This document shows, one piece after another, positions 706 through 22,366 of a DNA stretch of 49,322 bases. Source of the DNA: Promethearchaeota archaeon (GTDB lineage Archaea > Asgardarchaeota > Lokiarchaeia > Sigyniarchaeales > SOKP01). Every line of letters starts with the position of its first letter. Position 1 is the stretch's first letter. The position numbers were made by a program, and so were the translations under genes. Below the pieces are notes generated by a model. The model had not been told where the DNA came from. It saw only the letters and a list, made by a program, of their open reading frames with translations, and did not search any database. The stretch spans positions 1 to 49,322 of the forward strand of contig JAFGGO010000182.1 in assembly GCA_016930515.1 (NCBI GenBank), in the 5' to 3' direction.

Positions 706-1926
706 TTATTGTTCAACAACGAGATGATGGTTAAAGTGTTTTGACACGAGGGCATGCGTCGAGAGGAAAAGTTTTGGTTTTGGTACTTTATCATTAAGAA
801 TGTCCTTGAAAGCTTTTTGAAAGTCACTTAGGAACGCCTTCATTTTTTGTCGGATAATTGGGTGTTCTTGAAGGGCGATTACAACAACGAAGATGTTTTC
901 TCCCTCTTCAATAAGAATTGAAAATTGTTCTTGTTCGATCAGCTTTAAGGGTTTTTTTTGCGAAGATAATTCTTTAAGAAGGTATGAAACCGCAGTGAGT
1001 ATACCACCAAGGAGGTAATCGTCAATAATTGGCGTTTTTGGCCTCAATTCCTGCGAATATAACGTCATACCTGATTTTTGCACGACATTTATGTGTAATA
1101 GTGATTGTCTCCAATCGTATTTATCCACGAGATCGAATTCAACTTTTGAAAGTCGGAATAAAGATTCTCTAATATCAATTTTTTTAGTTGGACGAAGTTT
1201 TTGTTCTTTTTCTTCCCGCAATCCAAAATAGAAGAATAAAAAGCTAGTAGCCATTCCAATCCTATATATTAAATTTAAGATGGGATTTTGAACTATATAA
1301 TTAAATATTACGGGGAATCCAGTGAAAATAAAGTATCCACTAGATAAAAATAAGAATTTTTTTTTTACTAGAGCAGTTTCTTTTGTTGCCTTCCAGAGAA
1401 ATCCAAATCCACAAAAGATCATTCCTGATAATAAGAAAACGAATGTTATTGAAAACATAAAGATGTGGTTATCAGATAATTCAATGTCCATCACATCAGT
1501 CCCTAAAATAGATGGTTCGTTTAGGGTCAAAGAACCACTTGGGTTAGTGAATAAAATCAATTCATAAAGCAAAGCTAAAAATCCAAATATTGAAACAAAA
1601 TGCCAAATCTTGCTTGGATCAACAAGTTCACAAAAAATATACAAAGATATTAAGAGGACTATAGGGGTCCACATCCAGCTGACAATTCCATAAAAAATAT
1701 AATTCTGCTCATTTATTAAATTCGAACCTGTTAACACGATTGACATAAAATCTAAACTTTTATAAGACCAAAACATCCCTGCTAATACAACATTAATACC
1801 CATATAAAAGAGGAGTCTTGCTCGAAGCTTGCGTGCGTTATAAATGATGACCACCCCTAAAGTTAAAGCAAAAAAAAAGCAAAATGTTGCTGAAAGTCCA
1901 TTGAGCAGTCCTTCGGGCGATATCAT
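706..1926 (-). CDS. Multi-pass (about 7 TM) membrane protein fused to a C-terminal longin-like domain
   Basis: About 7 hydrophobic segments in aa 1-237, a charged linker, then HINVVQKSGMTLYS...DDYLLGGILTAVSYLLKE...LKLIEQEQFSILIEEGENIFVVVI, the Asgard longin/roadblock-type pattern. Confidence 0.75.
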   Translation of the reverse strand: MISPEGLLNGLSATFCFFFALTLGVVIIYNARKLRARLLFYMGINVVLAGMFWSYKSLDFMSIVLTGSNLINEQNYIFYGIVSWMWTPIVLLISLYIFCELVDPSKIWHFVSIFGFLALLYELILFTNPSGSLTLNEPSILGTDVMDIELSDNHIFMFSITFVFLLSGMIFCGFGFLWKATKETALVKKKFLFLSSGYFIFTGFPVIFNYIVQNPILNLIYRIGMATSFLFFYFGLREEKEQKLRPTKKIDIRESLFRLSKVEFDLVDKYDWRQSLLHINVVQKSGMTLYSQELRPKTPIIDDYLLGGILTAVSYLLKELSSQKKPLKLIEQEQFSILIEEGENIFVVVIALQEHPIIRQKMKAFLSDFQKAFKDILNDKVPKPKLFLSTHALVSKHFNHHLVVEQ

Positions 1927-2337: not shown

Positions 2338-3828
2338 ATGAGCTATAAATTACCAGACGAAAAAGATCTCGAGGCAATGATAGGCATTGTTGGTAAGAAT
2401 TATGCCACCAATAACAAGGCCATTACTGCTTCGTATCTCGCAAAATCGGTCATGGGGCTCGAATCACAAATCGCTGACATCGTCGTACGTCCCAAATACG
2501 TCGAAGAAGTGCGAAAGATCTTGCTCTATTGCTCCGAAGAAAAAATAGCCGTGTCGCCGATTTCGGGGGGATTATCTGGCGGTTTCGCGTGCCCGACTAT
2601 CAAACCTGCAGGGGTTCAAATGGACTTGGGGCGAATGAACCGTATCTTGGAAATTGACGAAGATAATAGATACGCCGTTGTGGAACCAGGTGTCACGAAC
2701 GGTGAGCTCTGGGCGTACATGCATAAACATCACCCCGATTGGGCACCTCCCATCGCAGACGGCGCTCCACCAGCTGCAACCGTCATGGGTGATGCCATCG
2801 ATAGAGGGTTTGCATTATATACTTCAAGCACCGGCCCACAAGGCGATAACTTCATGTGCGCAGAAGTCGTGTTCCCAAACGGTGACATCGTGCGAACTGG
2901 TTCCTGGGCCCTGCCTTTTGCGAAACCTTTCTACAAGTACGGTTTAGGACCCGACATGTGGTCTTTCTTAATGGGAAGCCAAGGCACTATGGGTGTCATC
3001 ACCAAGGCCGCCGTGAAAATCTATCCACATCCAGATTCAAAGACCGTCATTGCTTGGGGAATGGACAACCCATACGACATGCAGGACGTCACCTTAGATG
3101 TTGGTAAGCTCGAGTTCGGCGTTTCGCACAATACCGTCATGGTACAAGGTGGAAACTGGCCGCTCGTCATGACGCGATGGCCGAAGGATAAAATCCCACA
3201 GGACTACGAATTCTACGAAAAAGCAGGCATATCACAATGGTGGATGAACTGGGAGTGTTGGGCTCAAAGTCAAAAAGAGCTTGACAATGTCGTAGAAACA
3301 ATCAACGGCGTATGCGAAAAATACAAGAAATCAAATCGATGTCGAAATCCGGACGCAATGAAACCCTGGGAACTTCATCCCAAGCAAATCGCTTCGAGAA
3401 TGAAGAAACCCAACAAGATAGCTGTTCCCTATTCCTTCTGGGAGGCGGGGTTCTTGTTCATCACCTGGTACACCCCCTGGAACGAATGTGCTCATTTTGC
3501 TGAGATGTACAATGGCGTCTTGGAGAAATACGGCTTTCCACCCGTCATGTGGATTGCGAGCATCGAACGCTGCCGACAAGCAATTTGCATGCCTATTATC
3601 TGCTTCGATAGTACCAAGGACGAAGATTTCGAGCGCGTGCAAGAAGTGAACCGGGAAACCACTGAATATTCCTTGAAACAAGGCTGGCTCAATTACAGGC
3701 CAGATCCATACATTCACGCGCCCTTGACCTACAGTCAAGCCGCCATGTACTGGAAATACTTGCGAGCATGGAAAAAAATCGTGGATCCAAACATGATAAT
3801 GCATCCCGGAAGACTTGGTCTTCCGTAA
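2338..3828 (+). CDS. FAD-binding oxidoreductase (VAO/PCMH, GlcD-like family)
   Basis: VVRP, MDLGRMNRILEIDEDNRYAVVEPGVT, EVVFPNGDIVRTG, GSQGTMGVITK and C-terminal DPNMIMHPGRL motifs. Confidence 0.9.
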   Translation: MSYKLPDEKDLEAMIGIVGKNYATNNKAITASYLAKSVMGLESQIADIVVRPKYVEEVRKILLYCSEEKIAVSPISGGLSGGFACPTIKPAGVQMDLGRMNRILEIDEDNRYAVVEPGVTNGELWAYMHKHHPDWAPPIADGAPPAATVMGDAIDRGFALYTSSTGPQGDNFMCAEVVFPNGDIVRTGSWALPFAKPFYKYGLGPDMWSFLMGSQGTMGVITKAAVKIYPHPDSKTVIAWGMDNPYDMQDVTLDVGKLEFGVSHNTVMVQGGNWPLVMTRWPKDKIPQDYEFYEKAGISQWWMNWECWAQSQKELDNVVETINGVCEKYKKSNRCRNPDAMKPWELHPKQIASRMKKPNKIAVPYSFWEAGFLFITWYTPWNECAHFAEMYNGVLEKYGFPPVMWIASIERCRQAICMPIICFDSTKDEDFERVQEVNRETTEYSLKQGWLNYRPDPYIHAPLTYSQAAMYWKYLRAWKKIVDPNMIMHPGRLGLP

Positions 3829-3832
3829 ACCA

Positions 3833-3839
3833 GAGGTGA
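3833..3839 (+). promoter_or_regulatory. Shine-Dalgarno site GAGGTGA
   Basis: GAGGTGA with a 6-nt spacer before the ATG at 3846. Confidence 0.75.
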
Positions 3840-3845
3840 AAAAAA

Positions 3846-5222
3846 ATGGCAAAAACAGGAATGGATAGGTTAACGGAATTAAAAGGCGAAATCTTCAAGT
3901 GCATCCACTGTAAAGCGTGCAGGTTTGCGTACTCTGGAGAGCCGAGCAGGAAAGGAATTGGAGAATTCAAAGGCAAGCAAGGCTCCGTTCTCTACGAGGG
4001 AATGGTCGATTCATGCCCTGCTGGAATCGAATACGGCTGGGAAGCGTTCTGGAACGCAGGAAAGATCTGGATCGCTCGTTCGATATTAAGCGGCGATTTG
4101 GATTTTACCGAAGAAGTGCGAGATGTAATCATGCCCTGCATCACATGCGGTCAATGCTCTGCCCAATGTGAGAACAAGATCCCAACGGTGGACATCATCG
4201 AATCCCTAAGGGCTGCCTGTATCGAATCAGGAGTACCTTTAATCGACAAGCACGAGTTAGTCGTGAAATTGGTTAAGGAACTTAACAATCCTTACGGTGG
4301 TAAAAAGGACGAAAGGATGAAATGGGCAAAAGATGCCGGATTGGAAAAGTTCGTCAACAATAAAAACGCCAAGATAGCGTATTATGTTGGATGCACGGCG
4401 AGTTATCGTCAAGTCGAGGTGGCAATTGCCACGGCCAAATTATTTGAAGCATTAGGAATGAATTTCACGCTTATCGACGAAGAGGTGTGTTGCGGTAGCC
4501 CCTTCTTTAGGATAGGTGCGATTGACACTGCTCAAGCGCTAATGAAAAAGAACCTTGAAAACTTCAAGAATGTGGAAAAAGTCTACTTTTCGTGTGCGGG
4601 CTGTTACCGGACGTTTACGATCGATTATCCCAAGTGGATGGACGAGGAAAAGCTTCCATTCACGACACAACACGCATTTGAATTGATCGCAAAGCTTATT
4701 ACCGATAAAAAGATTAAGTTCAAGCCGAACGCCGAACTGAAGGGCAAGGTCGTCACATATCATGATCCCTGCCATACGGGTCGTCATTTTGGCATTGAAT
4801 TCGAGCAGGAACTCATCAAGCAAAGTAAGAACTTGATGCTCGATATGAGAAAGCTCGATCAAAAGCTCGAAGAATGGTTTGAAAAGCCGAGGACCATCTT
4901 GAAACAATTGGAAAAGGATGTTGGCATCAAGTTCGTCGAAATGTACCGCATTAAGATGAATAGCATGTGCTGCGGTGCCGGAGGCGGTGTAAGAGCGGGT
5001 TATCCCGACTTTTCCTTGAGAACGGCCAGCCTACGTTGCGACGAGGCGAACGCCGTGAACGCCGATATTTTGACCACTGAATGTCCCTTCTGCTGGAGGA
5101 ACTTGACCGATGCCAACGAGATGTACAATCATGGCATGAAAGTAATGGGCGTTCTCCAGATGATCACGGAATACGAGCTCTTGGACATCACCACGAAGCC
5201 TACGGAAAAAGATTTCTTATAA
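3846..5222 (+). CDS. Fe-S oxidoreductase with CCG domains (GlpC/GlcF/HdrD-like)
   Basis: CxxCxxC...CP and CxxCxxCxxxC ferredoxin-type motifs, YYVGC, EVCCG, CAGC, YHDPCH, CCGAGGG, CPFC; 17 nt after the FAD oxidoreductase. Confidence 0.9.
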   Translation: MAKTGMDRLTELKGEIFKCIHCKACRFAYSGEPSRKGIGEFKGKQGSVLYEGMVDSCPAGIEYGWEAFWNAGKIWIARSILSGDLDFTEEVRDVIMPCITCGQCSAQCENKIPTVDIIESLRAACIESGVPLIDKHELVVKLVKELNNPYGGKKDERMKWAKDAGLEKFVNNKNAKIAYYVGCTASYRQVEVAIATAKLFEALGMNFTLIDEEVCCGSPFFRIGAIDTAQALMKKNLENFKNVEKVYFSCAGCYRTFTIDYPKWMDEEKLPFTTQHAFELIAKLITDKKIKFKPNAELKGKVVTYHDPCHTGRHFGIEFEQELIKQSKNLMLDMRKLDQKLEEWFEKPRTILKQLEKDVGIKFVEMYRIKMNSMCCGAGGGVRAGYPDFSLRTASLRCDEANAVNADILTTECPFCWRNLTDANEMYNHGMKVMGVLQMITEYELLDITTKPTEKDFL

Positions 5223-11495: not shown

Positions 11496-12878
11496 TTGAT
11501 GGTTTATTTTGAAATAAAAAATGTGGGGTTTAACTGCGATAAAGACAAGGATGCATGTCCAGAATACCCTGATTCGTGCGAAAAATGCGTGCTTGAGCGA
11601 TTGAAATCACTTGGATTCAAGTTCGATTCTCACATTAAGGTAATGGAAATGGATTCTGAGGAAAAGCGTCTTGAAATGTATCAAGAACAAATATGGCAAA
11701 AATTCTTGAACATCCTCAATATCAAACATATTATTATAATGGACAAGAACTCGGGAGTGCCAATCACAAATTACGCTGTATCTGAAGCGGGTATTGATGC
11801 AGGAATGCTGTCGGGATTCATCCAAGCGAATATCACCTTTTCCGAAAGATCAGGCAGCACAGATCAGCAAGATAGCGTGATAGATTATCATTTTTACCAC
11901 TTTCAATATAAAGATTTTAACATTTTACTCAAGAATGGTGAATTTTCGCGTGTTTGCTTGATACTCGACCATAAACCATCAAAAACATTAGAGTCAATCA
12001 CGCGAGAATTTGTAATTGACCTTGAGAAGAAATACGCCAGCGAATTTAAATCATTTCAAACAAGAAAAATATTAAACTTTCCTTTCTTGGAAGAATTTAT
12101 AATTGAGGGCTTTAGCGTGCAATTTCTTTTTCCAATGATTTTAACTCACACGATTCCTCCCGACGCCATGGAATCTATCAACGATAATAAAATAAAAAAC
12201 GCCGTTTTCAAGCTCGCAAAAGAGTTTCTTTCAAAAAAGCACTTTTTTTTCATCAATACCTTACTTAGTGAAATCAAAAAAATCATTGATGTCGAATCAA
12301 AAATAATAATATACGAAATATATCAACTTCTAAAAATGAGTGTCATGATTCCAACTACCATCGAGACCGTAGAGTCAAGCGTAAAGGAATTTGAAGAAAA
12401 GCGAGCTCGAAAAATTGCAAATAGTCACGTGATTTCTCACATTATATCTACGGAAAATTCAATCACTGCCTTAGACGAATTGAAAAAGGCTGCTAAGACC
12501 ATGGATCAAGACACTGCTAGAAAGCAAATGGAACAGTTCATAAAGAAGGGTAAAACCGCAGAAAGAAGTAAAATTTACAAAGAGGCACAAAAAGAATACG
12601 AAAAAGCCTTGTATCTCGCTACGGGATTTAATTTTAATGATGATATAGGGAAGATTTCGTTCATGATCCTCGAACTGGACAAGATCATTGGTGATATTGA
12701 GCTCGAATACGCAATTAATGCAGGTGAAACCGCTGAAAGAAAGAAGGATTTTATCGATAGCATCAGGCATTACAAGAAAGCAATCGCTATCTTAGAAAAA
12801 GATGTTGGGTCTGGAAGTTCCGAATCAAAGATTAAAAAATTGGAAAAAAAAATATCAAAATTACAGGATTTAATCTGA
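11496..12878 (+). CDS. Longin-like domain protein with an N-terminal Cys cluster, a winged-helix-like segment and C-terminal TPR/MIT-like repeats
   Basis: CDKDKDACPEYPDSCEKC; IKHIIIMDKNSGVPI...DAGMLSGFIQANITFS...FNILLKNGEFSRVCLIL; two helical repeats (GKTAERSKIYKEAQKEYEKAL, GETAERKKDFIDSIRHYKKAI). Confidence 0.7.
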   Translation: MMVYFEIKNVGFNCDKDKDACPEYPDSCEKCVLERLKSLGFKFDSHIKVMEMDSEEKRLEMYQEQIWQKFLNILNIKHIIIMDKNSGVPITNYAVSEAGIDAGMLSGFIQANITFSERSGSTDQQDSVIDYHFYHFQYKDFNILLKNGEFSRVCLILDHKPSKTLESITREFVIDLEKKYASEFKSFQTRKILNFPFLEEFIIEGFSVQFLFPMILTHTIPPDAMESINDNKIKNAVFKLAKEFLSKKHFFFINTLLSEIKKIIDVESKIIIYEIYQLLKMSVMIPTTIETVESSVKEFEEKRARKIANSHVISHIISTENSITALDELKKAAKTMDQDTARKQMEQFIKKGKTAERSKIYKEAQKEYEKALYLATGFNFNDDIGKISFMILELDKIIGDIELEYAINAGETAERKKDFIDSIRHYKKAIAILEKDVGSGSSESKIKKLEKKISKLQDLI

Positions 12879-12998: not shown

Positions 12999-15900
12999 TT
13001 GAGTATAAATTTTGAGGGGTTGGACAATCGTTTGACGGTCGTTGAAAATAAAACTGCATATCCCTACATCACAACTTTTAAAAAAGAACCATTCAAATCC
13101 TTTGCATTAATGAAAAGAAAGGATATTGGGCATTTTTATTTCAGCGAATACGAGAGAGTAGTAAAAGTTTATAAATATTACAACGAAAATTTGTTAAAAG
13201 ATAAAATATTAAATCTTGAAAACATTTACTGGTTTCTCTTGCTTAGAAAATACCTTCGGGAGGATAAGCAAGAGCATTCAGACGAGATCTACGATTTTAT
13301 AATCAAATGCGAGGTTATTTTAGGCGATAAGATAGGGTTCAAATTCTCTCCATCCTCAAAACAAAAATATCCCGATATATGGTCCACATATTTTGCCTTA
13401 GCAAGTTTAAAATTATTAGGTGCACTTAAGGTCTATCTCAGCCCAAAAGGAAAGCTGAATGTGAGGAAAGCTATATTAGAGTTCATTGATTCACACAAAA
13501 CTGGACATGGATATCTTCATTGCCTGGATAAGGATTGTCCAATTGACAAGAAAACTTCCGTCGTGAGGACTCTATACTTTATTCTTGACGCGTTAATATT
13601 ATTAGGTGTAGATGTACGAGCAAATAAAGAAGAATTTAGCGAAATAATTGGAGATTTAAAAAAGGATCCAACGATCGTTTTCAAACTGCTCTGTTCAAAG
13701 TTCATCGAAACGGACATCAATATAAGAGATAAAGAAATTCAATATTTATATTCTTATCAAAGAGAAAACAAGGGATTTAGTTTTAAAAAAGTTGAGGGTC
13801 AGATAAATACAACTTTTTGGGTCGTCTACGCTCTTAATAATTACTCGTGGATTTTAGATTATAATCCGATGGGAATATATTCGTTCATAAATGCTAAATT
13901 TCAAGATATCCTTGTTGCCGAACTAAATCCTATAAAGTTAATGGAACTTTCGAAATTAGCGATCTTATTTTCGATAATTTGGGAAAAATTCATCCAAGAA
14001 ATCGAAAGAGTCTTATTCAAGCAATTAGAACAGGAAAAATATGTTGATTTAAATCAAATAAAAAATACTTTTGGACTTGTTCATGGAATCGAAGAAGTTA
14101 TATCGTTCATTAATCTTAATTATACTTTTAATCTAAGGATTTTAGACAATCGAGTTGAATTTAAAAATTTTATCAGAAATTTGGGTAAGGGATTGCAATC
14201 TATTGCTAGGGAATTTTACGATAGACTGAGTAACAATAGTATAGTTTCTCTTTCAGATATATCCAAGAGGTACAAGTCAAGTTATTATCCTGAGAATGTT
14301 AAACTAAGAGAGGACGTGCTACCAATGATAAGAGATTTAGCAAGACGAAATTTCTTCAAGGGCACTATTCGCTCGAAGAGAAAACCAATAAAAAAGAAAT
14401 ACTTGTTCTACTTGAATTTTTTCTTGGAAAAAATTATCGTGTCCGACACTGAAATAAACTTGGAGCAATTACTAAGCGAAAAAGAAAAGCTCAAGGACCA
14501 TAAAAACACCATTTACAACATGATCTTGAAATTAAAGACCGCCACTAATAAAACGAGAGAAGAAATAGAAAGTTACCTCTTAATCGACGAAATTGACATT
14601 GCTAAGGAAAGAATCAGGTATTTAATTCACAACACGCTCATGGACGCCGAATTTTTGAACGAGAACATTGAACTATCGTTTAGCGAGGATTTATATTATA
14701 TTAACCTCCAAAAAGCGCTTGAGCCAGAAATTAACGCTTGGAAAAAGCAATATTCCGTGTTAAAAAGCAAGTTAAGAGACTTGGAACTTAATTTACAGGC
14801 AAGAATTGAAGAAAAGGAAGAAATCAGGAGCATTACGAAGATCCTTAATAGTTTAAAGGAAAAAATCTCGAACATAGAGGTTGATATACATAACAAAATT
14901 GAAAAATTCAGGTCATATTTCAGGGAGACCCTTGAAACAGAGTATAGCGACGAGATTTTTAACCTTCTCACCCGGGAGTTCGAAAAGATTTCTCAAAGAG
15001 TGCAAAGATACGATAATATCATCTATAGGGTCTCGCAACAAATCCAAACTCGAGAAGGGAAACTAAAACGCAAGCATAAAAAGATCATTGATAAGTGGAT
15101 CACCATCAAGCAAGAGTTTGACGAGATTTTCGGGTATTATACCGATGGTTTTGAATTTTTTCACAAAAGCATTAACGAAATTGAAGAAATTCGAAACACT
15201 ATCCGTATTGAATTCTCTGAGATTGGAAAAAAGATAAATCAACAAATAGCAGAAAACGAATACGAGATAAAAATCATTTTAGACGCCATTAAAAAAGAAA
15301 CGGATGCAATTTTAAGTGAAAAAATGAACAAGATTAAAGATTTACAGAAAACATTCAAAAAAGAGATAAAATCAAAACAGAAGTTGTACTTACTTTATAG
15401 ATATTTACCAGAAAAATTAGATGCTTTAGAAGAAGATATATTGGAACTAATGGCGCAACAAGTTCAACTTTTAAAAAATAAAGCCCTTGAAGAGAGAAAG
15501 AGAGCAAAAACGGAGGATTTCGACAATTTCGTAAACCAAGAGATGGCAAACCTGAAAACAAAAACAATTTCGTTTAATAATTATTTAAACCAACTAAAAA
15601 GTATCAGAATAAAGGATGTGAACAAGGGAGTTGAGAAGCTACAAAAACAACTTGAAGAAGCAAACCAACTATACAAGGCAAAATTAAACGAAGGTATCGC
15701 AGAAATTAGCGATTTCGAAGAAAAGTCAAATGTTACAATCATTCAATGGGAAAATTTTAAAGTTTATTTTTACAACGAAATTGAGAACTTAAAAAACGAA
15801 AGAATTAATACCATCATTACTAACAAGATAAAAGCTGTTTCATTAGAGAAAAAGACGAATAATATAGACATTAACGAACTTAAAAAGGAACTTAATCTTA

Positions 15901-17426
15901 ACTGCAAGGTTTTACTAACGCGCATACGTGAAATGATTGAGATATCCCAGATAAGCGCAAAACTTTACGAAGATAAGAAATGTTTGTTATTACATACGGA
16001 TCATTTTTACAAGAACGAGGATCTCAAGAATCACATCGATAACAAGATTTTAAAACCGAATAACGAGGCAATTGGTAAAATTTTAGCGTTATACGATTCA
16101 AGCATAAAAAATAAGACATTAGGCATCAATACTTTAGAGCTTAAGAATAGGATACAGGATTTGAGAGATTTTGAGAAATTTTCAAAGGAACAATTCTCAA
16201 AAAAAATCGAAGAGTTAGAAATTGATAGAACCAGATCAGATTATAAAAGAACGAAAAAATATTTCAAGGAGACTCTAGAAAATCAAAGCAAGGCCCTTAA
16301 GAATATCAAGGATTCCTTAATATTTTTTATTGAAACGAAAGATTTTATTTTCAAGGAATTTAACAAATTAAGCGTGGATCTAAAACAAAATTTTGAAAAC
16401 ATCGCAGAGGATAAAGAAAAAATTGATGAAGATTTTCAGGGTAAGGTAAAGCGATTCGATTTAAAACATAGGGACATAATAGAAAAAATAGAGATAGAAT
16501 TAAAAGAATCTTTAAGTAAAAACTATGAAATTGGAAAATTAAACCCTGAAATTAGAGAATTTTATGTCCAGACGAAAAACGAATTCCAAAGAGAATACGA
16601 AAACAAGATAGAAAAATTAAAAGAGCAAGTGTTTAACATCAAAAACGACTCGTTCAGAGAGGACTTCCTCAATTACTTAAACGAAAACAAGATACAACTT
16701 AGTCAGTTACTTGGAAATCTTGAAAGAAGTGTTGAGGACGATGTGGAAGTGAAGTTTTACAAGAGAGCGTATCTGAAAATCGATAAAAGAGTAAAGCGTA
16801 TCGAAAACGAGATAAAAGATAAGACTAAAAGCTTAAAAAACTATGTTAAAAAAGCAACAAAAAAGTCAAAGGATTTCGAAACTAGGAACAAGTATCTAAT
16901 CGATGATTTCGGCCAATTCCTCCAGAAATTCTGGGAGATACTAGGAGAAAAAGTTAAACAATTAGAACAATTGATAATTAAATCCTATATTGAAACAACA
17001 ATAAATGCCGTGGCAAACGGATTTCTTACTACGAGTTTTTTAAACGAAGAACTTAAGATAAAAAAAAAAAACATCCAAGAAGCCATAATTATCCTTATTA
17101 GTAATGGAGAGCTTGAAGGTAAATACGACATTCGATTAGGAATTTATTACGAGGATCCTGAGATTCTCAACAATATAAACGAAGAGGAGCTCGAAGTAAT
17201 CAAGAAAATGCCTTTTAAATTTTACATGTTTATCACACATTTAAAAAGTTTCACGGGACAATACGCCTCGATCATCGCCATGTTCGCTTCTGTGTTGACG
17301 ATAACATATACTTTATTTGCCATTACTGGTAATTTATTTATTGCGCTAATACCTTTTACTGTTATAATAATACTTCTTAGCTATGCGTGGTATAAGAAGA
17401 AGAAAGAAGCAAAAATAAAAATCTAA
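12999..17426 (+). CDS. 1475-aa protein: prenyltransferase/squalene-cyclase-repeat barrel, winged-helix (PCI-like) domains, long coiled coils, two C-terminal TM helices
   Basis: Repeats DEIYDFIIKCE..GF..PDIWSTYFALASLKLLG and IQYLYSYQRENKGFS..GQINTTFWVVYAL; PCI-like FLNEELKIKKKNIQEAIIILISNGELEGKYD; E/K-rich heptads; hydrophobic hairpin followed by KKKK. Confidence 0.7.
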   Translation: MSINFEGLDNRLTVVENKTAYPYITTFKKEPFKSFALMKRKDIGHFYFSEYERVVKVYKYYNENLLKDKILNLENIYWFLLLRKYLREDKQEHSDEIYDFIIKCEVILGDKIGFKFSPSSKQKYPDIWSTYFALASLKLLGALKVYLSPKGKLNVRKAILEFIDSHKTGHGYLHCLDKDCPIDKKTSVVRTLYFILDALILLGVDVRANKEEFSEIIGDLKKDPTIVFKLLCSKFIETDINIRDKEIQYLYSYQRENKGFSFKKVEGQINTTFWVVYALNNYSWILDYNPMGIYSFINAKFQDILVAELNPIKLMELSKLAILFSIIWEKFIQEIERVLFKQLEQEKYVDLNQIKNTFGLVHGIEEVISFINLNYTFNLRILDNRVEFKNFIRNLGKGLQSIAREFYDRLSNNSIVSLSDISKRYKSSYYPENVKLREDVLPMIRDLARRNFFKGTIRSKRKPIKKKYLFYLNFFLEKIIVSDTEINLEQLLSEKEKLKDHKNTIYNMILKLKTATNKTREEIESYLLIDEIDIAKERIRYLIHNTLMDAEFLNENIELSFSEDLYYINLQKALEPEINAWKKQYSVLKSKLRDLELNLQARIEEKEEIRSITKILNSLKEKISNIEVDIHNKIEKFRSYFRETLETEYSDEIFNLLTREFEKISQRVQRYDNIIYRVSQQIQTREGKLKRKHKKIIDKWITIKQEFDEIFGYYTDGFEFFHKSINEIEEIRNTIRIEFSEIGKKINQQIAENEYEIKIILDAIKKETDAILSEKMNKIKDLQKTFKKEIKSKQKLYLLYRYLPEKLDALEEDILELMAQQVQLLKNKALEERKRAKTEDFDNFVNQEMANLKTKTISFNNYLNQLKSIRIKDVNKGVEKLQKQLEEANQLYKAKLNEGIAEISDFEEKSNVTIIQWENFKVYFYNEIENLKNERINTIITNKIKAVSLEKKTNNIDINELKKELNLNCKVLLTRIREMIEISQISAKLYEDKKCLLLHTDHFYKNEDLKNHIDNKILKPNNEAIGKILALYDSSIKNKTLGINTLELKNRIQDLRDFEKFSKEQFSKKIEELEIDRTRSDYKRTKKYFKETLENQSKALKNIKDSLIFFIETKDFIFKEFNKLSVDLKQNFENIAEDKEKIDEDFQGKVKRFDLKHRDIIEKIEIELKESLSKNYEIGKLNPEIREFYVQTKNEFQREYENKIEKLKEQVFNIKNDSFREDFLNYLNENKIQLSQLLGNLERSVEDDVEVKFYKRAYLKIDKRVKRIENEIKDKTKSLKNYVKKATKKSKDFETRNKYLIDDFGQFLQKFWEILGEKVKQLEQLIIKSYIETTINAVANGFLTTSFLNEELKIKKKNIQEAIIILISNGELEGKYDIRLGIYYEDPEILNNINEEELEVIKKMPFKFYMFITHLKSFTGQYASIIAMFASVLTITYTLFAITGNLFIALIPFTVIIILLSYAWYKKKKEAKIKI

Positions 17427-17457: not shown

Positions 17458-17964
17458 CTACATACACCTTTTTATTTCCTCGAGCCTTCTCATTCTCCTA
17501 TTAGCTCTTCGCTTGTAATGTCTTTCGATCTGGTCGATCATCAGGAGTTTAACATTTAAAGGTTTTCGATTCACGATTTCTTGTAAGTCATTAGAGAAGG
17601 ATTTAACTTTCTTAAATTCTTTAACCAAGTGCTTGTTTTTGATAAGGTAATGAAACGAGGAATTAAATTTTTTGACTATGGATTTTACAGTCATTCTAAT
17701 TAATTCGTGACTAGCGTCTGGGTCGCTCACTGCCACGATAAAAAGGTTTTGATCTGATAATTCAAAAATTATTTTTCGGCTTCTGAATTGAATGAATTCG
17801 ATGTCCTCAGAAAATGCTTCTTTGGTGAAACTGCGAATAGCCGCCAAGAAGCTCGATATGAGCTGCGTGTCTTTTAAAGACCACTTCACATAATTTTCCT
17901 CGAAGAAACACAAGCCACTATCAATGTCCATTATCCATAATCCATCTATTAGAAATTCATTCAT
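17458..17964 (-). CDS. Stand-alone longin-like protein
   Basis: IDGLWIMDIDSGLCFF...DTQLISSFLAAIRSFTKE...IEFIQFRSRKIIF...FIVAVSD. Confidence 0.7.
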   Translation of the reverse strand: MNEFLIDGLWIMDIDSGLCFFEENYVKWSLKDTQLISSFLAAIRSFTKEAFSEDIEFIQFRSRKIIFELSDQNLFIVAVSDPDASHELIRMTVKSIVKKFNSSFHYLIKNKHLVKEFKKVKSFSNDLQEIVNRKPLNVKLLMIDQIERHYKRRANRRMRRLEEIKRCM

Positions 17965-18150: not shown

Positions 18151-20280
18151 TTAATCAAAGGTTTTTAAAAATCGGATTTTATTCCCTTCTTTCTGGAGGA
18201 ATCCCAAATAGCACGCTTGGTTCAAATGAGTATAAAATTTTTTCTCAACTAGATCCTCCTCCTCTGCAAGTCCTTCTAATTTTGATATTTCAATGGATCC
18301 TTTGTTGGAATATATATCCACGAGATTAATCAATGTTTTTATATTGTTATTTATATATTTTTTTGGTTGTTTTGTTTCTTTTTTCAAATTTTTGCACTTC
18401 ATTTTTTGTATTTTTTTCGCTAAACTCATACGATCGAGCTTTATCACCTCAGAATAAAGCGTTATGCCAAATTTTTTTAATTGCCTTAAATATTGACTTT
18501 CTTTAAATTCGTCAAGTTCCGAAATTATTGTCTCGATTGAGCGATTTGTTAACAAATCTTTTTCTTTTTCTTTTATAGCCCTATATTTATTTAAAATTTC
18601 AAATTCAGAAATCTTATTCTTTGCCGAAAAGCTAATCTGTTTTCGAGGAACAGATTTGATTAATTTAAGTTTATCAGGTGAAGCTAAAACATCTTGCATT
18701 TGGTTTTCTTTTCTTACAGCAACCTTATGAAATGGTACATCAACCGTATTTTCGGTAATTAATATGAAACACCTTCCATAGTTAAAACGGCCAGTCCTTC
18801 CCCTTCTTTGAATTGTTCTGATTTCAGAAGGAACGGGTTCGTAAAAGATTATCGAATCCACGCTTGGAATATCTAAACCTTCCTCAGCAACGCTAGTGGC
18901 AATTAAAACATCAATCTTTCCTTCCTTAAATTCTTTTATAATCTCAATTTGTTTGACTTGAGAATACCCCACATCTCCATCTGCTTTAGATTGTTGACCA
19001 ATGAATTTTTCTATAACGAGTTCGTCTGCAAATTCATTTTTAAGTTTTGTTTTTAATAATTCTGCCATTTCGCGATATTGGGTAAATATCAATACTTTTT
19101 TGTTCCTCTTGAGATTTATCTCGTCTTGAACGATAGAAACGACTTTTTTAAGTTTTGGGTGCTCTAAATTTTCATTTTTCCCTTCATCGTGAAAACAAGT
19201 AATAAGTTTGAAATGCTCCGAATTTGCTATTCTTTCGGCAGATCTTACTCCTTGAGCTGCACGAGATGCTATTTTTTCTAAAAAAGACATGAATAGCGAT
19301 ACATCTTGAGTTTCTAGGAGATCTTTTGCGTGTAATATGGATATACAACTCGCACAATAAGAAAAAATCGATTGGATGTTCAATTTTTTTTCTCGAACAA
19401 TCTCTAGGATTGTTGGAGATTGAAAGTATAATGTTTCAAGATTTGAATTATCGGATTGTAAGCAAACAGTGAGGTCGCGTGTTATCTTCAAGAAGTCCAA
19501 TTTGGAATGATAATTTTTTGAAGGATTAATTAATCCTCTCTCGATAAAAAATCTTAGAAACTTATGAAATAAGTGGTTCCATATTTCGCAGATCTCTATC
19601 ATCCTAAGCGGTAAATCTACGATTTCTAGTATCTCTTCTATATCTTGTATATAATTCTTTATATCTTCGTCTTGACGTGTCTTAAATACAATATTTTCTA
19701 TGAGCAAGTTGTTACAAATTATTTGGATTTGTTCTTGATCTCTTCCGGGAGATGCTGTCAAACCTAAAACAATAGGATCAGAACAATCTTCGAAATATTT
19801 TCGCGAAACGAAAGTATAGGCATAATTTTTTTTGGATCTATGAGCTTCGTCAAAAATAATCAATGAAACTTCTTTTAAATCATATCTATCTCTTTCTAGA
19901 TCGTTTTTAATTACTTGAGGTGTTGAAATTATGATTCTTGAATTATGAAAAAACATCATTCTTTTTTCTGGAGGTGTTCTACCTGTAAGAGTAACAATTT
20001 GTTTTTGTTCAACATCGAGGAATTTATAAAGCGAGTCGTAGTGCTGATATATAAGGGGTTTTGTAGGAGCTAGCAATAATATCTTAGCATTTTTATATTT
20101 TTTTAAATAACGACTCACGAGTAAGACGGCTATGATTGTCTTTCCTAAACCAGTTGGAAGCACGACTAGGGAATTTTTATCAAAACACGAATTAACGATA
20201 TTTAATTGATATTTTCGATGGAGGATAGTGTCTTGCTTTAGAAATGGTCCATTAACATATTTAGAAATTACACCATCCAT
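18151..20280 (-). CDS. hef: Hef/FANCM/Mph1-family SF2 helicase
   Basis: RKYQ, LPTGLGKT, FDEAHR, GLTASPG, HPKL, IFTQYR, ATSVAEEGLDIP, IQRRGRTGR; no ERCC4 nuclease motif seen. Confidence 0.88.
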   Translation of the reverse strand: MDGVISKYVNGPFLKQDTILHRKYQLNIVNSCFDKNSLVVLPTGLGKTIIAVLLVSRYLKKYKNAKILLLAPTKPLIYQHYDSLYKFLDVEQKQIVTLTGRTPPEKRMMFFHNSRIIISTPQVIKNDLERDRYDLKEVSLIIFDEAHRSKKNYAYTFVSRKYFEDCSDPIVLGLTASPGRDQEQIQIICNNLLIENIVFKTRQDEDIKNYIQDIEEILEIVDLPLRMIEICEIWNHLFHKFLRFFIERGLINPSKNYHSKLDFLKITRDLTVCLQSDNSNLETLYFQSPTILEIVREKKLNIQSIFSYCASCISILHAKDLLETQDVSLFMSFLEKIASRAAQGVRSAERIANSEHFKLITCFHDEGKNENLEHPKLKKVVSIVQDEINLKRNKKVLIFTQYREMAELLKTKLKNEFADELVIEKFIGQQSKADGDVGYSQVKQIEIIKEFKEGKIDVLIATSVAEEGLDIPSVDSIIFYEPVPSEIRTIQRRGRTGRFNYGRCFILITENTVDVPFHKVAVRKENQMQDVLASPDKLKLIKSVPRKQISFSAKNKISEFEILNKYRAIKEKEKDLLTNRSIETIISELDEFKESQYLRQLKKFGITLYSEVIKLDRMSLAKKIQKMKCKNLKKETKQPKKYINNNIKTLINLVDIYSNKGSIEISKLEGLAEEEDLVEKKFYTHLNQACYLGFLQKEGNKIRFLKTFD

Positions 20281-20360
20281 GTTATCATTTTATTATGGAT
20301 CGTGTATTTAAAGTACGAAGACCCGATAGAATTAGTAAATATTTGATAGAATATGAGAGT

Positions 20361-21362
20361 TTAAAAATTTGGTTGAAAGAAAAAGTCTTCCTTACCAGGA
20401 ATGCATCTCACATGGTCTTGATGGATCAACATTTTAAGCGTGACAAATATCCACCCGCGTGCGATTCCAATAAAGAATCGACTCGCTCCAGGGTAGAGAT
20501 TGTTTACTATTCTCGTCGTACTTATTCCCTTAGGGTGATTTTGAACTAATTCTAAAACTTGATTAGATCTTTTTTCTCGATGCGATAAGATTTCGCGAAT
20601 TCTCTCTTTTGGATGCTTAATCAGAGGTCCGTGAGCTGGAAGAATTAATTTTAGATTTTTTAAGTTGTAAATATATTTGAGAGATTTGATGTAATCCTGA
20701 ACATCTGAACTTGGAGGTCCCAACCAAGTTGTGGTTGTGTATAGAATGTTATCACCAGAAAATAAAATCCCCTTTTCTTCATTGTAAAGTGATAGATGAT
20801 CAAATGAATGTCCAGGAGATGGAAAAATGCGCCATTCATCGCCGTTTATATTAATAATCGTCTCTTCATCAACAATCTCGTCAGGATCTGATATGAAGTT
20901 AATGCCATAACCGAATCGATAAAAAGAACGATATAAATTTTTCCTTAATTTTTCCTTGAATTTTTTTTTTGTATTATCTTTTCGTTGGGGAGCGTGATCC
21001 TGCGAATCTTCAAAGAAGGCATAAAAATTTTCCTTGTTGTTTATGGTTTGAGCCATTTTATCTGTAAGAATTATTTTAATGCGTAATTGATCTCTAAGTG
21101 CTTTGAGTCCTGAAAAATGATCCGGATGAATATGGCTTGGAAGTGCTCGAGTGAGTTTAAAAAAAATTCCTTGACGAGTGTATTTGGTTTTTATATGATT
21201 AATTTCTCGAAGAAGAAACCTTATCGCACTTCTTGTCCCATACCCCGCGTCAAAAATTAACCCATTTTTTCCTGCAATAACATATATATTTTCAGTCGGT
21301 TTTATAACACCAAAATTACTTTTTTCTTGTATCAAATATATTCCATCGATAACTTCCTTCAT
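20361..21362 (-). CDS. Metallo-beta-lactamase-fold hydrolase (LACTB2-like)
   Basis: SHIHPDHFSG (HxHxDH), PGHS, FSGD, PAHG. Confidence 0.88.
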   Translation of the reverse strand: MKEVIDGIYLIQEKSNFGVIKPTENIYVIAGKNGLIFDAGYGTRSAIRFLLREINHIKTKYTRQGIFFKLTRALPSHIHPDHFSGLKALRDQLRIKIILTDKMAQTINNKENFYAFFEDSQDHAPQRKDNTKKKFKEKLRKNLYRSFYRFGYGINFISDPDEIVDEETIININGDEWRIFPSPGHSFDHLSLYNEEKGILFSGDNILYTTTTWLGPPSSDVQDYIKSLKYIYNLKNLKLILPAHGPLIKHPKERIREILSHREKRSNQVLELVQNHPKGISTTRIVNNLYPGASRFFIGIARGWIFVTLKMLIHQDHVRCIPGKEDFFFQPNF

Positions 21363-21418: not shown

Positions 21419-22366
21419 TTATTTAATGAGAATGTATTTTGAAAGCTCCGTCCTTCGTTTTCTCAATGTTAATTGCGTGACTTGGGCGATCTCACAAATT
21501 TCTTTTTGAGTTCTTTTTTCCCCGAATACTTTTGAGGCCGAATAAATAAATGCTGCCGCCAAACCCTTTGGATCCTTTCCAGAAGTATTATATCCTCTTT
21601 CTTTTGCTTGCTTTAAGAGTTTTATTGCGTAATTCCTGCATTGCATTGGTAATTTTAATTCTTCAATAAACCTATTTATATAGGAGGAGGCATTCAAATT
21701 ATTGACTTTAAGGTTTAGGGAAGGAAGAACTTCCAAGAGAATTAATTTGAAATTTTTTATACATTTTTTATGAGGAATATTCGTAATCTCTAAGATTTCA
21801 GACATAGTTAAAGGTATTTCGTGAATTCTCATTGCCGCAAACATCGATGCTGAAAGTAGAGATTCAATGCTTCTCCCCACGGTGAGCTTTTTTCTTACGA
21901 CTGACTGATAAATTTTAAGAGCGTTTCTTGCAACAACATTTGGAATTTGTAGACGTTCCCTTAAGTTTTCTAGTAACGGAATTGCTATTTTGAGATTCCT
22001 TTCGAAGGAATCTACAACAGAGTTTTGAATTTTTGACAAGCGAGCGAACTTAGAAGCGATATCTGAAGTCAATAGACCCCCACTTGCGTCTCGTTTACCT
22101 CGAATGACCGTTCGAGGACCTATTTTGTTTTTAACTACTTCGTTTATGATTCGATCTTTCTTTTCCTCTGCTGTATAAGTTCTCCTTGGAGCATCGTCGA
22201 AGATTTTCGATATAATAAATCCACAATTCAGACAAACATAATATCCGTCTTCCTGACTAATTTGGGGCATCGGGCAACAAGATTTTTCTTCGAATTCTTC
22301 GAAAAAGTGATCTTCCCTTTTCGGTTTTTCGGAGTGGTGAGAATTTTTTTTCGTGTATAAACCCAT
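21419..22366 (-). CDS. tfb: Transcription initiation factor IIB (TFB) paralog
   Basis: Zn ribbon (CCP...VCLNCG), ERNL, GRSIES, GKDPKGLAAA, RTQKEICEIAQVTQLTLRKR cyclin repeats. Confidence 0.9.
   Translation of the reverse strand: MGLYTKKNSHHSEKPKREDHFFEEFEEKSCCPMPQISQEDGYYVCLNCGFIISKIFDDAPRRTYTAEEKKDRIINEVVKNKIGPRTVIRGKRDASGGLLTSDIASKFARLSKIQNSVVDSFERNLKIAIPLLENLRERLQIPNVVARNALKIYQSVVRKKLTVGRSIESLLSASMFAAMRIHEIPLTMSEILEITNIPHKKCIKNFKLILLEVLPSLNLKVNNLNASSYINRFIEELKLPMQCRNYAIKLLKQAKERGYNTSGKDPKGLAAAFIYSASKVFGEKRTQKEICEIAQVTQLTLRKRRTELSKYILIK

Follow-up and report, generated by a model that had tools for sequence, protein, structure and literature searches.

A Lokiarchaeia protein family with a predicted membrane anchor, a helical rod and a prenyltransferase-beta-like head that lacks the canonical zinc site

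We analysed the open reading frame (ORF) at positions 12999..17426 (+) of contig JAFGGO010000182.1 from a Promethearchaeota archaeon (assembly GCA_016930515.1); the window, below, is the whole 49,322-nucleotide stretch examined. With moderate confidence, we read its product as a Lokiarchaeia-specific, membrane-anchored and cytoplasm-facing scaffold or spacer, in which a distal ring would bind something, PCI/winged-helix joints and an N-terminal peptide would dock partners, and a C-terminal module would set the address. The ring resembles the beta subunits of protein prenyltransferases but appears to lack their catalytic zinc ligands, and carries a His/Cys motif of its own. An earlier interpretation, made from the sequence and its translations without database searches and called here the sequence-only reading, had proposed a non-catalytic prenyltransferase-like barrel on a coiled-coil stalk. 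Added or made explicit by the present analysis are the restriction of one motif position to metal ligands, the link between two forms of the protein, the contrast between a near-universal anchored form and a patchy longin-ended one, and the spread of the longin-like domain, which includes the upstream neighbour of the gene.

Results

The gene belongs to a family confined to Lokiarchaeia

The ORF is a real gene, of 1475 aa when counted from its first TTG. The TTG at 13032 (codon 12) is probably the true start, giving 1464 aa, since the consensus N-termini of homologs align to codon 12; conservation from K18 to S34 excludes the internal ATG at M38. The window is archaeal, as judged from its G+C content of ~33% and a TFIIB gene at 21419-22366. 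A word-indexed search recovered homologs at full length (1460-1490 aa), over 130 in all, with 45-63% identity. Those that are named come from Promethearchaeota/Lokiarchaeota metagenome-assembled genomes, and the homologs are annotated as "hypothetical" or "prenyltransferase/squalene oxidase repeat-containing". No NCBIfam family matched the protein, and phmmer with the whole protein found no match among PDB sequences. Full-text literature searches returned no description of the family, nor is the architecture described in PMC4915359, PMC4917890, PMC10936438, 10.1101/2020.10.19.343400 or PMC12962969.

Column conservation is uniform over the protein, at ~0.62-0.69 in most segments. It peaks in the PCI winged helix described below (0.80, the top segment) and next in the N-terminal peptide (0.75). 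This peptide is predicted to be disordered (pLDDT <50 over aa 1-28 in AlphaFold2) and is a candidate linear docking motif.

Whole-genome searches found the gene in single copy, in 67 of the 68 genomes of its own family. It is present at full length, with 24-27% identity, in five of seven genomes of a sister family of the same order, among them a closed single-contig genome of 4.4 Mb (G213; 25% identity), and two further families of the class gave a match in one of two genomes. None was found in the ~220 Asgard genomes sampled outside the class. On this sampling the family is restricted to a single class of Asgard archaea, Lokiarchaeia. Some database labels are at odds with this tally. Several ortholog-bearing genomes (L049, L064, L065, L069, L081 and others; 46-51% identity) bear submitter labels of Thor-, Odin-, Hod- or Hermodarchaeota, which clash with the taxonomy-based count of none outside the class. 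One ortholog-bearing contig (L062, DATKTW010000086.1) is labelled "Candidatus Nanopelagicaceae bacterium" and is probably mis-binned.

The head is a prenyltransferase-beta-type toroid without the canonical zinc site

Prenyltransferase-beta-type repeats had been noticed at the N-terminus in the sequence-only reading, and they are found by Pfam as well: PF00432 matches aa 60-198 at 32.8 bits (cut-off 26.5; E 6.6e-8) and is matched by 38/38 aligned homologs. An AlphaFold2 model of aa 1-500 (pLDDT 88.4, pTM 0.85) places 12 helices over aa 47-346. We compared this model with PDB structures using VIA-align, for which the bar for helical folds is Z ~13. The head reached Z 21-22, with an rmsd of 2.8-3.5 Å over 255-272 residues, and the top 50 entries were all prenyltransferase beta subunits; residues 17..304 of RabGGTase beta aligned end to end with residues 47..330 of the model. 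The significant Foldseek matches were likewise all protein prenyltransferase beta chains, and a sequence-profile search of the PDB placed RabGGTase beta first, weakly (E 0.0017). The models thus support a prenyltransferase-beta-type alpha/alpha toroid, and superposition upholds the barrel fold that had been proposed.

The zinc ligands of these enzymes are D238, C240 and H290 in RabGGTase beta, and D297, C299 and H362 in FTase beta. In the VIA-align register, D238 and C240 of the RabGGTase beta motif D-V-C-Y-S-W-W correspond to Q268 and N270, which agrees with the earlier identification of Q-I-N-T-T-F-W as the counterpart of DxCY. Both positions are variable in the family and are never Cys, and H290 falls somewhere in aa 313-320. 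Whatever the register, neither aa 262-272 nor aa 305-327 holds an Asp, Cys or His that is conserved among 38 homologs. In prenyltransferases the Arg and Lys that bind the diphosphate precede inner helix 10, and the columns at this place in the family (263-267) are variable. Judged from these alignments, the canonical catalytic apparatus appears to be absent from the head. A search for the PPTA alpha subunit (PF01239) in the gene's own genome, which is 94% complete, gave at best 22.7 bits, under the cut-off of 29.5.

Compared with the beta subunits of RabGGTase/GGTase-III, GGTase-I and FTase, the head shares the 12-helix toroid and GGF-type repeat motifs and is similar in size to RabGGTase beta. 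Identity to them is merely 14-18%, however, and the head differs in lacking the Asp/Cys/His triad, apparently also conserved diphosphate-binding residues, and in having an extra HC-x4-C loop. It also differs in context: a rod of 1,100 residues and a membrane anchor continue the chain beyond the toroid, and the genome yielded no alpha subunit. PMC4915359 describes prenyltransferase-domain homologs as common in archaea, with active heterodimers not known, and Asgard Rab-like GTPases as without prenylatable cysteines. According to PMC4915359 and PMC4917890, C-terminal Cys boxes are missing from Asgard small GTPases, and one table of PMC4917890 lists prenyltransferases as absent from Lokiarchaeum.

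A His/Cys motif is the best conserved element of the family

The head carries a different candidate metal site: the loop that leads into inner helix 6 reads H174-C175-x4-C180-x2-D183. Its H174 never varies, and conservation of C175 and C180 stays at 90% or more when homologs of only 16-25% identity are included. Among close orthologs, 118 of 120 have HC-x4-C; so do 20 of 23 distant representatives, some of them with x3 spacing, and all 22 paralogs. In 38 close homologs, position 183 is Cys in 24, Asp in nine, Glu in four and His in one, each of these residues being a metal ligand. In the alignments, no element of the family is better conserved than H-C-x4-C-x2-[C/D/E/H]. The motif appears to lie in an enlarged loop on the face of the ring that bears the canonical site, two repeats away from it. 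It is probably a zinc site, and a structural role seems more likely than a catalytic one.

The motif is absent from the account of the head in the sequence-only reading, which had taken the head for a non-catalytic "pseudo-prenyltransferase". The absence of the canonical zinc triad agrees with that claim; the presence of a different, better conserved His/Cys cluster suggests that the head is not metal-free. A non-catalytic head is likely.

The nearest relatives of the head outside the family are prokaryotic or metagenomic

To place the head, its first 500 residues were compared exhaustively with 1.84 billion representative sequences using HMMER. At E <=0.001, 78 matches were obtained. About 48 of these (E <=1e-10) belong to the family, whole or as fragments, and reach down to Helarchaeota-labelled genomes; in the next tier (E 1e-7 to 1e-3) are toroid proteins of prokaryotic or metagenomic origin, several carrying signal peptides. 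No eukaryote was among the named near-outgroup clusters, and a eukaryotic sequence affinity of the head was rejected on that basis. A family that is confined to one class and has no such affinity says little about the rise of eukaryotic protein prenylation. The relevance to the origin of prenylation that had been suggested for this gene finds no support here, given also that its nearest outsiders are prokaryotic or metagenomic toroids and that its genome gave no PPTA alpha subunit above the cut-off.

The modelled part of the rod combines winged helices and helical bundles

Between the head and the membrane the chain alternates winged helices with long helical stretches, the helical rod amounting to ~850 aa. 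About four winged-helix units had been claimed, and we recover that number: three are clear, at ~397-482, 955-999 and 1342-1385, and one is partial, at ~347-393. G455 is invariant across the wide family. Pfam searches with the isolated winged-helix regions aa 340-490 and 940-1005 returned nothing meaningful, and an ESM Atlas feature search with aa 340-1420 returned nothing usable. The first part of the rod, aa 486-950, is poor in Pro and Gly and has a strong heptad pattern with register shifts; W581, W700 and W917 are invariant.

The C-terminal part of the protein was modelled as aa 930-1475 (pLDDT 85.9; pTM 0.54, as expected for an elongated chain). The model runs from a winged helix (955-999) through long helices up to 1334 to another winged helix (1342-1385), a basic helix and two membrane helices (1423-1443 and 1446-1472). 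It was compared by VIA-align, independently of Foldseek, with ~48,000 PDB representatives. Winged helix 3 superposes on that of DDRGK1 (8c0d_E) with Z 9.9 and an rmsd of 1.5 Å over 59 aa. The segment aa 1000-1335 aligns with three consecutive spectrin/plakin repeats of 1u4q_B (Z 11.1, 305 residues, rmsd 6.3), and with the single spectrin repeat 1aj3 at Z 10.4 (95 residues, rmsd 3.4). Pfam Spectrin had no match in the protein or its homologs. An internal duplication of the rod was rejected, as hhalign between sub-profiles found no significant repeat.

This part of the rod is modelled as spectrin-like bundles within a single chain, together with PCI-type winged helices, and not as a dimeric coiled coil; where modelled, it gives no support to the coiled-coil stalk of the sequence-only reading. 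A homodimer prediction with two copies of aa 486-952 scored 0.16 against a mark of 0.42, a result that counts neither way on dimerisation.

The last winged helix is, from model and profile comparisons, of PCI type. Of 38 homologs, 35 match Pfam PCI (PF01399) with an E of 0.1 or lower, the best reaching 1.2e-8; on this protein itself the profile scores 18.4 bits (E 0.0025), under the Pfam cut-off of 22. The ten nearest ESM Atlas clusters are all PF01399, and a CSN2 PCI cluster aligns with TM 0.66 by target (111 aa, rmsd 3.2). The best Foldseek matches of this end, which are weak, are to lid, CSN and eIF3 subunits. The other PCI-bearing ORFs found in the genome are a UFL1-like protein, the paralog described below and one 295-aa frame only.

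Orthology of our protein to UFL1 was rejected: PF09743 finds a different ORF. That ORF is a 796-aa frame (G000:C67:17641-18540 (+); E3_UFM1_ligase, PF09743, E 4.4e-16) with three PCI hits. A UFC1-like region, barely over the cut-off at 25.8 bits, lies in an 897-aa frame (G000:C100:36160-36633 (-)).

Two known kinds of protein resemble this arrangement. PCI scaffold subunits (Rpn5/6, CSN2/4, eIF3c/e) have the same helical segment followed by a winged helix; here, by contrast, the modules sit inside a membrane-anchored rod, and no set of lid-, CSN- or eIF3-like partners was recognised. Nesprins and other KASH proteins, and plakins, have rods of tandem three-helix bundles, an arrangement predicted here as well, between a membrane anchor at the C-terminus and a binding head at the far end; the rod here has invariant Trp residues. 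Unlike them, our protein shows no sequence similarity, has a hairpin in place of a KASH peptide and bears a toroid rather than a CH domain. The likeness to spectrin-repeat linkers would be one of design, shared ancestry not being indicated.

A C-terminal hairpin is predicted to anchor the protein with the head in the cytoplasm

The only strong hydrophobic region is a C-terminal span of 45 aa, which forms two helices around a T-G-N turn whose G1444 is invariant. Of 138 full-length homologs, 126 have this span, the most distant ones among them. No hydrophobic segment occurs at the N-terminus of this protein, and just one of the 138 homologs has one. Basic residues flank the hairpin on both sides (HLK, KK and K before it, KKKKEAKIKI after it), and K+R exceeds D+E in the C-terminal tails of homologs. 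Since the two ends of a hairpin share one side, the positive-inside rule places them in the cytoplasm, and the Cys/His cluster would fit a reducing compartment. The protein is predicted to face the cytoplasm and to carry its head at the end opposite the anchor. Both the absence of a signal peptide with a C-terminal hairpin before KKKK, and the cytoplasmic barrel held away from the membrane, had been put forward from the sequence, and they agree with what we find.

A paralog replaces the hairpin with a longin-like domain

The genome contains a second ORF that combines PF00432 and PCI. This paralog, P0219 (1236 aa; G000:C161:19254-22961 (-) = L030:2252-5962 (-)), matches our protein by BLAST over aa 56-539 (6e-18) and aa 1195-1377 (5e-5). 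It keeps the HC-x4-C motif, the head, the winged helices, the rod and the PCI module. The two forms differ at the C-terminus, where P0219 has a highly conserved alpha/beta domain of ~150 aa, longin-like, instead of the membrane hairpin. The domain reads as a beta-beta-alpha-beta-beta-alpha pattern in the sequence. Support for longin is weak: Pfam Fuz_longin_1 is found in two of 14 paralog members, at best with 0.0079, and a comparison of the domain with PDB sequences gave no match. The paralog is old but patchy: it forms 19 clusters, and the eight genomes that have it, out of 91 in the class, come from three families.

A profile of the P0219 C-terminal domain has 13 matches in this genome. One lies in the gene immediately upstream, P0239, and one in a multi-pass membrane protein encoded at 706-1926, at 730-1092 (-) (E 3.7e-14). 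The convergent downstream neighbour, P0238, is weakly longin-like (Pfam Fuz_longin_1 E 0.038). With about a dozen other copies in a genome estimated at a few thousand genes, a longin-like copy adjacent to our gene is unlikely by chance. As Rosetta-stone evidence, the fusion in the paralog and this adjacency hint modestly at a functional connection with longin-type proteins; the adjacency, confined to the closest relatives, carries little weight. Combinations of PCI, longin and TPR domains occur in Asgard ESCRT-associated proteins, according to PMC10936438. The features of the protein and its immediate neighbours are collected in Table 1.

Table 1. Features of the head-rod-PCI protein and adjacent genes in the window
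Feature	Position	Strand	Basis
Conserved N-terminal peptide, aa 12-36	13032..13106	+	K18, Y21-P22-Y23, T25, F27-K28-K29-E30-P31-F32 and S34 at columns conserved in at least 90%
Alpha/alpha toroid head, prenyltransferase-beta-like, aa 47-333	13137..13997	+	PF00432, AlphaFold2, VIA-align, Foldseek
Putative non-canonical metal site, H174-C175-x4-C180-x2-D183, loop before inner helix 6	13518..13547	+	conservation
Degenerate counterpart of catalytic D-x-C-Y-S-W-W, Q268-I-N-T-T-F-W274	13800..13820	+	VIA-align register
Connector helix, partial winged-helix-like unit (~aa 347-393) and winged helix 2 (~aa 397-482)	13998..14444	+	DSSP of AlphaFold2 model, pLDDT 82-96
Rod part 1, aa 486-950	14454..15848	+	composition and heptad scan
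Winged helix 3, DDRGK1/PCI type, aa 955-999	15861..15995	+	AlphaFold2, VIA-align
Rod part 2, three consecutive three-helix bundles, spectrin-like, aa 1000-1335	15996..17003	+	AlphaFold2 (pLDDT ~90 or more), VIA-align
Membrane-proximal PCI-type winged helix, aa 1342-1385 (Pfam PCI aa 1317-1377)	17022..17153	+	Pfam, ESM Atlas, conservation
Helix with basic residues before the membrane, aa 1406-1421	17214..17261	+	sequence, AlphaFold2
Predicted two-helix membrane hairpin, aa 1422-1443 and 1446-1466, T-G-N turn	17262..17396	+	hydropathy, AlphaFold2, conservation
Basic C-terminal tail, KKKKEAKIKI	17394..17423	+	sequence
P0239, upstream neighbour, 460 aa: Cys cluster, longin-like domain (11679-12062) and TPR	11496..12878	+	domain profile E 1.2e-12
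P0238, convergent downstream neighbour, 168 aa, weakly longin-like	17458..17964	-	hhalign to P0219 C-terminal domain, probability 86%, E 4.7e-6

Discussion

A proposed anchored scaffold with a distal ring

In the arrangement that we favour, the C-terminal hairpin would insert with both of its ends in the cytoplasm. Outward from the membrane, the chain would present the PCI winged helix, three spectrin-like bundles and the DDRGK1/PCI-like winged helix, followed by ~460 helical residues, another winged-helix unit and, at the distal tip, the 12-helix toroid. By extrapolation, if aa 486-950 are built like the modelled half, the rod would hold about seven bundles and span a few tens of nm. The invariant H-C-x4-C loop would hold a zinc that shapes the mouth of the ring, and the head, rather than acting as a prenyltransferase, would most likely bind a peptide tail or some hydrophobic/isoprenoid ligand. 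Partners would be likely to dock on the PCI and winged-helix modules and on the conserved, disordered N-terminal peptide. That the paralog swaps the hairpin for a longin-like domain suggests that head, rod and PCI module form the working unit, while the C-terminus would set its address, either lipid directly or a longin/small-GTPase system.

Several points weigh against this interpretation. The half of the rod on which the extrapolated length depends (aa 486-950) lies outside the models. The zinc register (an offset of ~30 to RabGGTase beta), the position of the His/Cys motif on the ring and the state of the central cavity are all taken from alignment ranges and repeat logic rather than from coordinates. 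Three strict ligands (His, Cys, Cys) with a variable fourth may resemble a catalytic zinc as much as a structural one. The spectrin/plakin-like matches reach Z 10-11.6, under the bar for helical folds, and we therefore limit the claim to an intrachain arrangement of three-helix bundles and do not extend it to spectrin homology. Finally, no conserved operon partner was found, the immediate neighbours varying between genomes.

The family also indicates that archaea have reused the prenyltransferase-beta fold as a probable non-catalytic module. Lokiarchaeia include the sole cultured Asgard archaea, whose protrusions, actin cytoskeleton and many small GTPases and longin proteins are under intense study. 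A single-copy gene that takes up ~0.1% of the genome length, with a product predicted to reach tens of nm off the inner membrane face, makes a candidate structural element for tomograms and proteomes. A bolder version, which we consider speculative and rather improbable, would make the protein an Asgard cortical linker, a functional analogue of nesprins and DDRGK1. In it the dead ring would be a receptor for tails or isoprenoids, the joints would recruit a UFL1-like or cytoskeletal machine, and the address would be switchable between hairpin and longin/GTPase. If so, it would extend to archaea a logic of membrane identity built from parts that eukaryotes use differently.

Alternative explanations

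The ring could instead be an active metalloenzyme with a relocated zinc site, in which H174, C175 and C180 would activate a thiol or other nucleophile, making the protein an unorthodox prenyl or alkyl transferase on an anchored rod. The H/C/C triad does top conservation in both the family and the paralog, its three fixed ligands and variable fourth resemble catalytic zinc sites, and the loop would lie, by repeat logic, on the face of the canonical site. We nevertheless regard this as unlikely. The diphosphate-binding Arg/Lys and the canonical triad positions are variable; the genome has no PPTA alpha subunit above the cut-off; and the fourth ligand that most orthologs offer (Cys, Asp, Glu or His) would leave the metal saturated, as is typical of a structural site. 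Asgard small GTPases, moreover, are reported in PMC4915359 and PMC4917890 to be without C-terminal Cys boxes. An outward-facing surface protein, akin to secreted prenyltransferase-repeat proteins, would be very improbable. Many such proteins exist in archaea and bacteria, the sequences nearest to the family include secreted toroids, and the same genome encodes a secreted, C-terminally anchored toroid, P0240. Yet a signal peptide is missing, an N-terminal hydrophobic segment is almost never seen among the full-length homologs, the basic flanks of the hairpin put both termini on the cytoplasmic side, and PCI modules, winged helices and a Cys/His cluster all belong in the cytoplasm. The relation of the head to P0240 itself is also unconvincing, with an hhalign probability of 1.3%, so the two are unrelated at the profile level. 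P0240 (365 aa; L033:1626-2723 (+), G000:C130) is an ordinary surface toroid that has a signal peptide and is anchored once, at its C-terminus.

Two further alternatives, both of which we hold to be improbable, turn on the rod. In eukaryotes, the membrane-anchored protein DDRGK1 serves UFL1, and our protein might similarly be a membrane receptor or platform for a winged-helix/PCI machine, be it UFL1-like/UFC1-like conjugation, ribosomes or nucleic acid. The close superposition of winged helix 3 on the DDRGK1 winged helix speaks for it, as do Pfam DDRGK matches in two of 38 homologs (best 3.2e-5), weak E3_UFM1_ligase matches in three of 38, the separate UFL1-like protein and UFC1-like region encoded in the genome, and UFL1-like domains described for Asgard archaea in 10.1101/2020.10.19.343400. 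These matches reach only the generic level of the winged-helix/PCI fold, however. The genome search with PF09743 misses our protein at E up to 1, neither Ufm1 nor UfSP has a match in the 94% complete genome, the gene is not linked to the UFL1-like locus, and the toroid head would be left unexplained. A golgin-like tether, with a dimeric coiled coil and a head that captures vesicles or other membranes, would account for the C-terminal anchor, the long heptad-patterned region poor in Pro and Gly and the globular distal head, and the longin-like end of the paralog hints at coupling to small GTPases. Against it, the modelled third of the rod folds back, with high confidence, into three-helix bundles within one chain, winged helices interrupt the rod, and no similarity to eukaryotic golgins appeared in the Pfam, PDB or Atlas searches.

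Genomic context and other toroid proteins

P0239 and P0238 adjoin the gene in its closest relatives only (L018/L019), and unrelated genes take their places elsewhere. An operon with the longin genes was rejected, since the flanking genes change outside the closest relatives; P0239 is a possible partner. Two other blocks keep their positions across distant Lokiarchaeia: a convergent DEAD/ResIII helicase with a metallo-beta-lactamase-fold gene downstream, at 18151-21362 (-), and an FAD_binding_4 and CCG pair upstream, at 2338-5222 (+). Both look like general synteny rather than a functional link.

The genome encodes other toroid proteins. One is an unusual fusion of a toroid with an ABC-transporter ATPase, in a 1093-aa ORF (L031:2696-5977 (+), G000:C76; PF00432 E 4e-29). 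A further toroid protein, of 1006 aa, is encoded at L032:1069-4089 (-).

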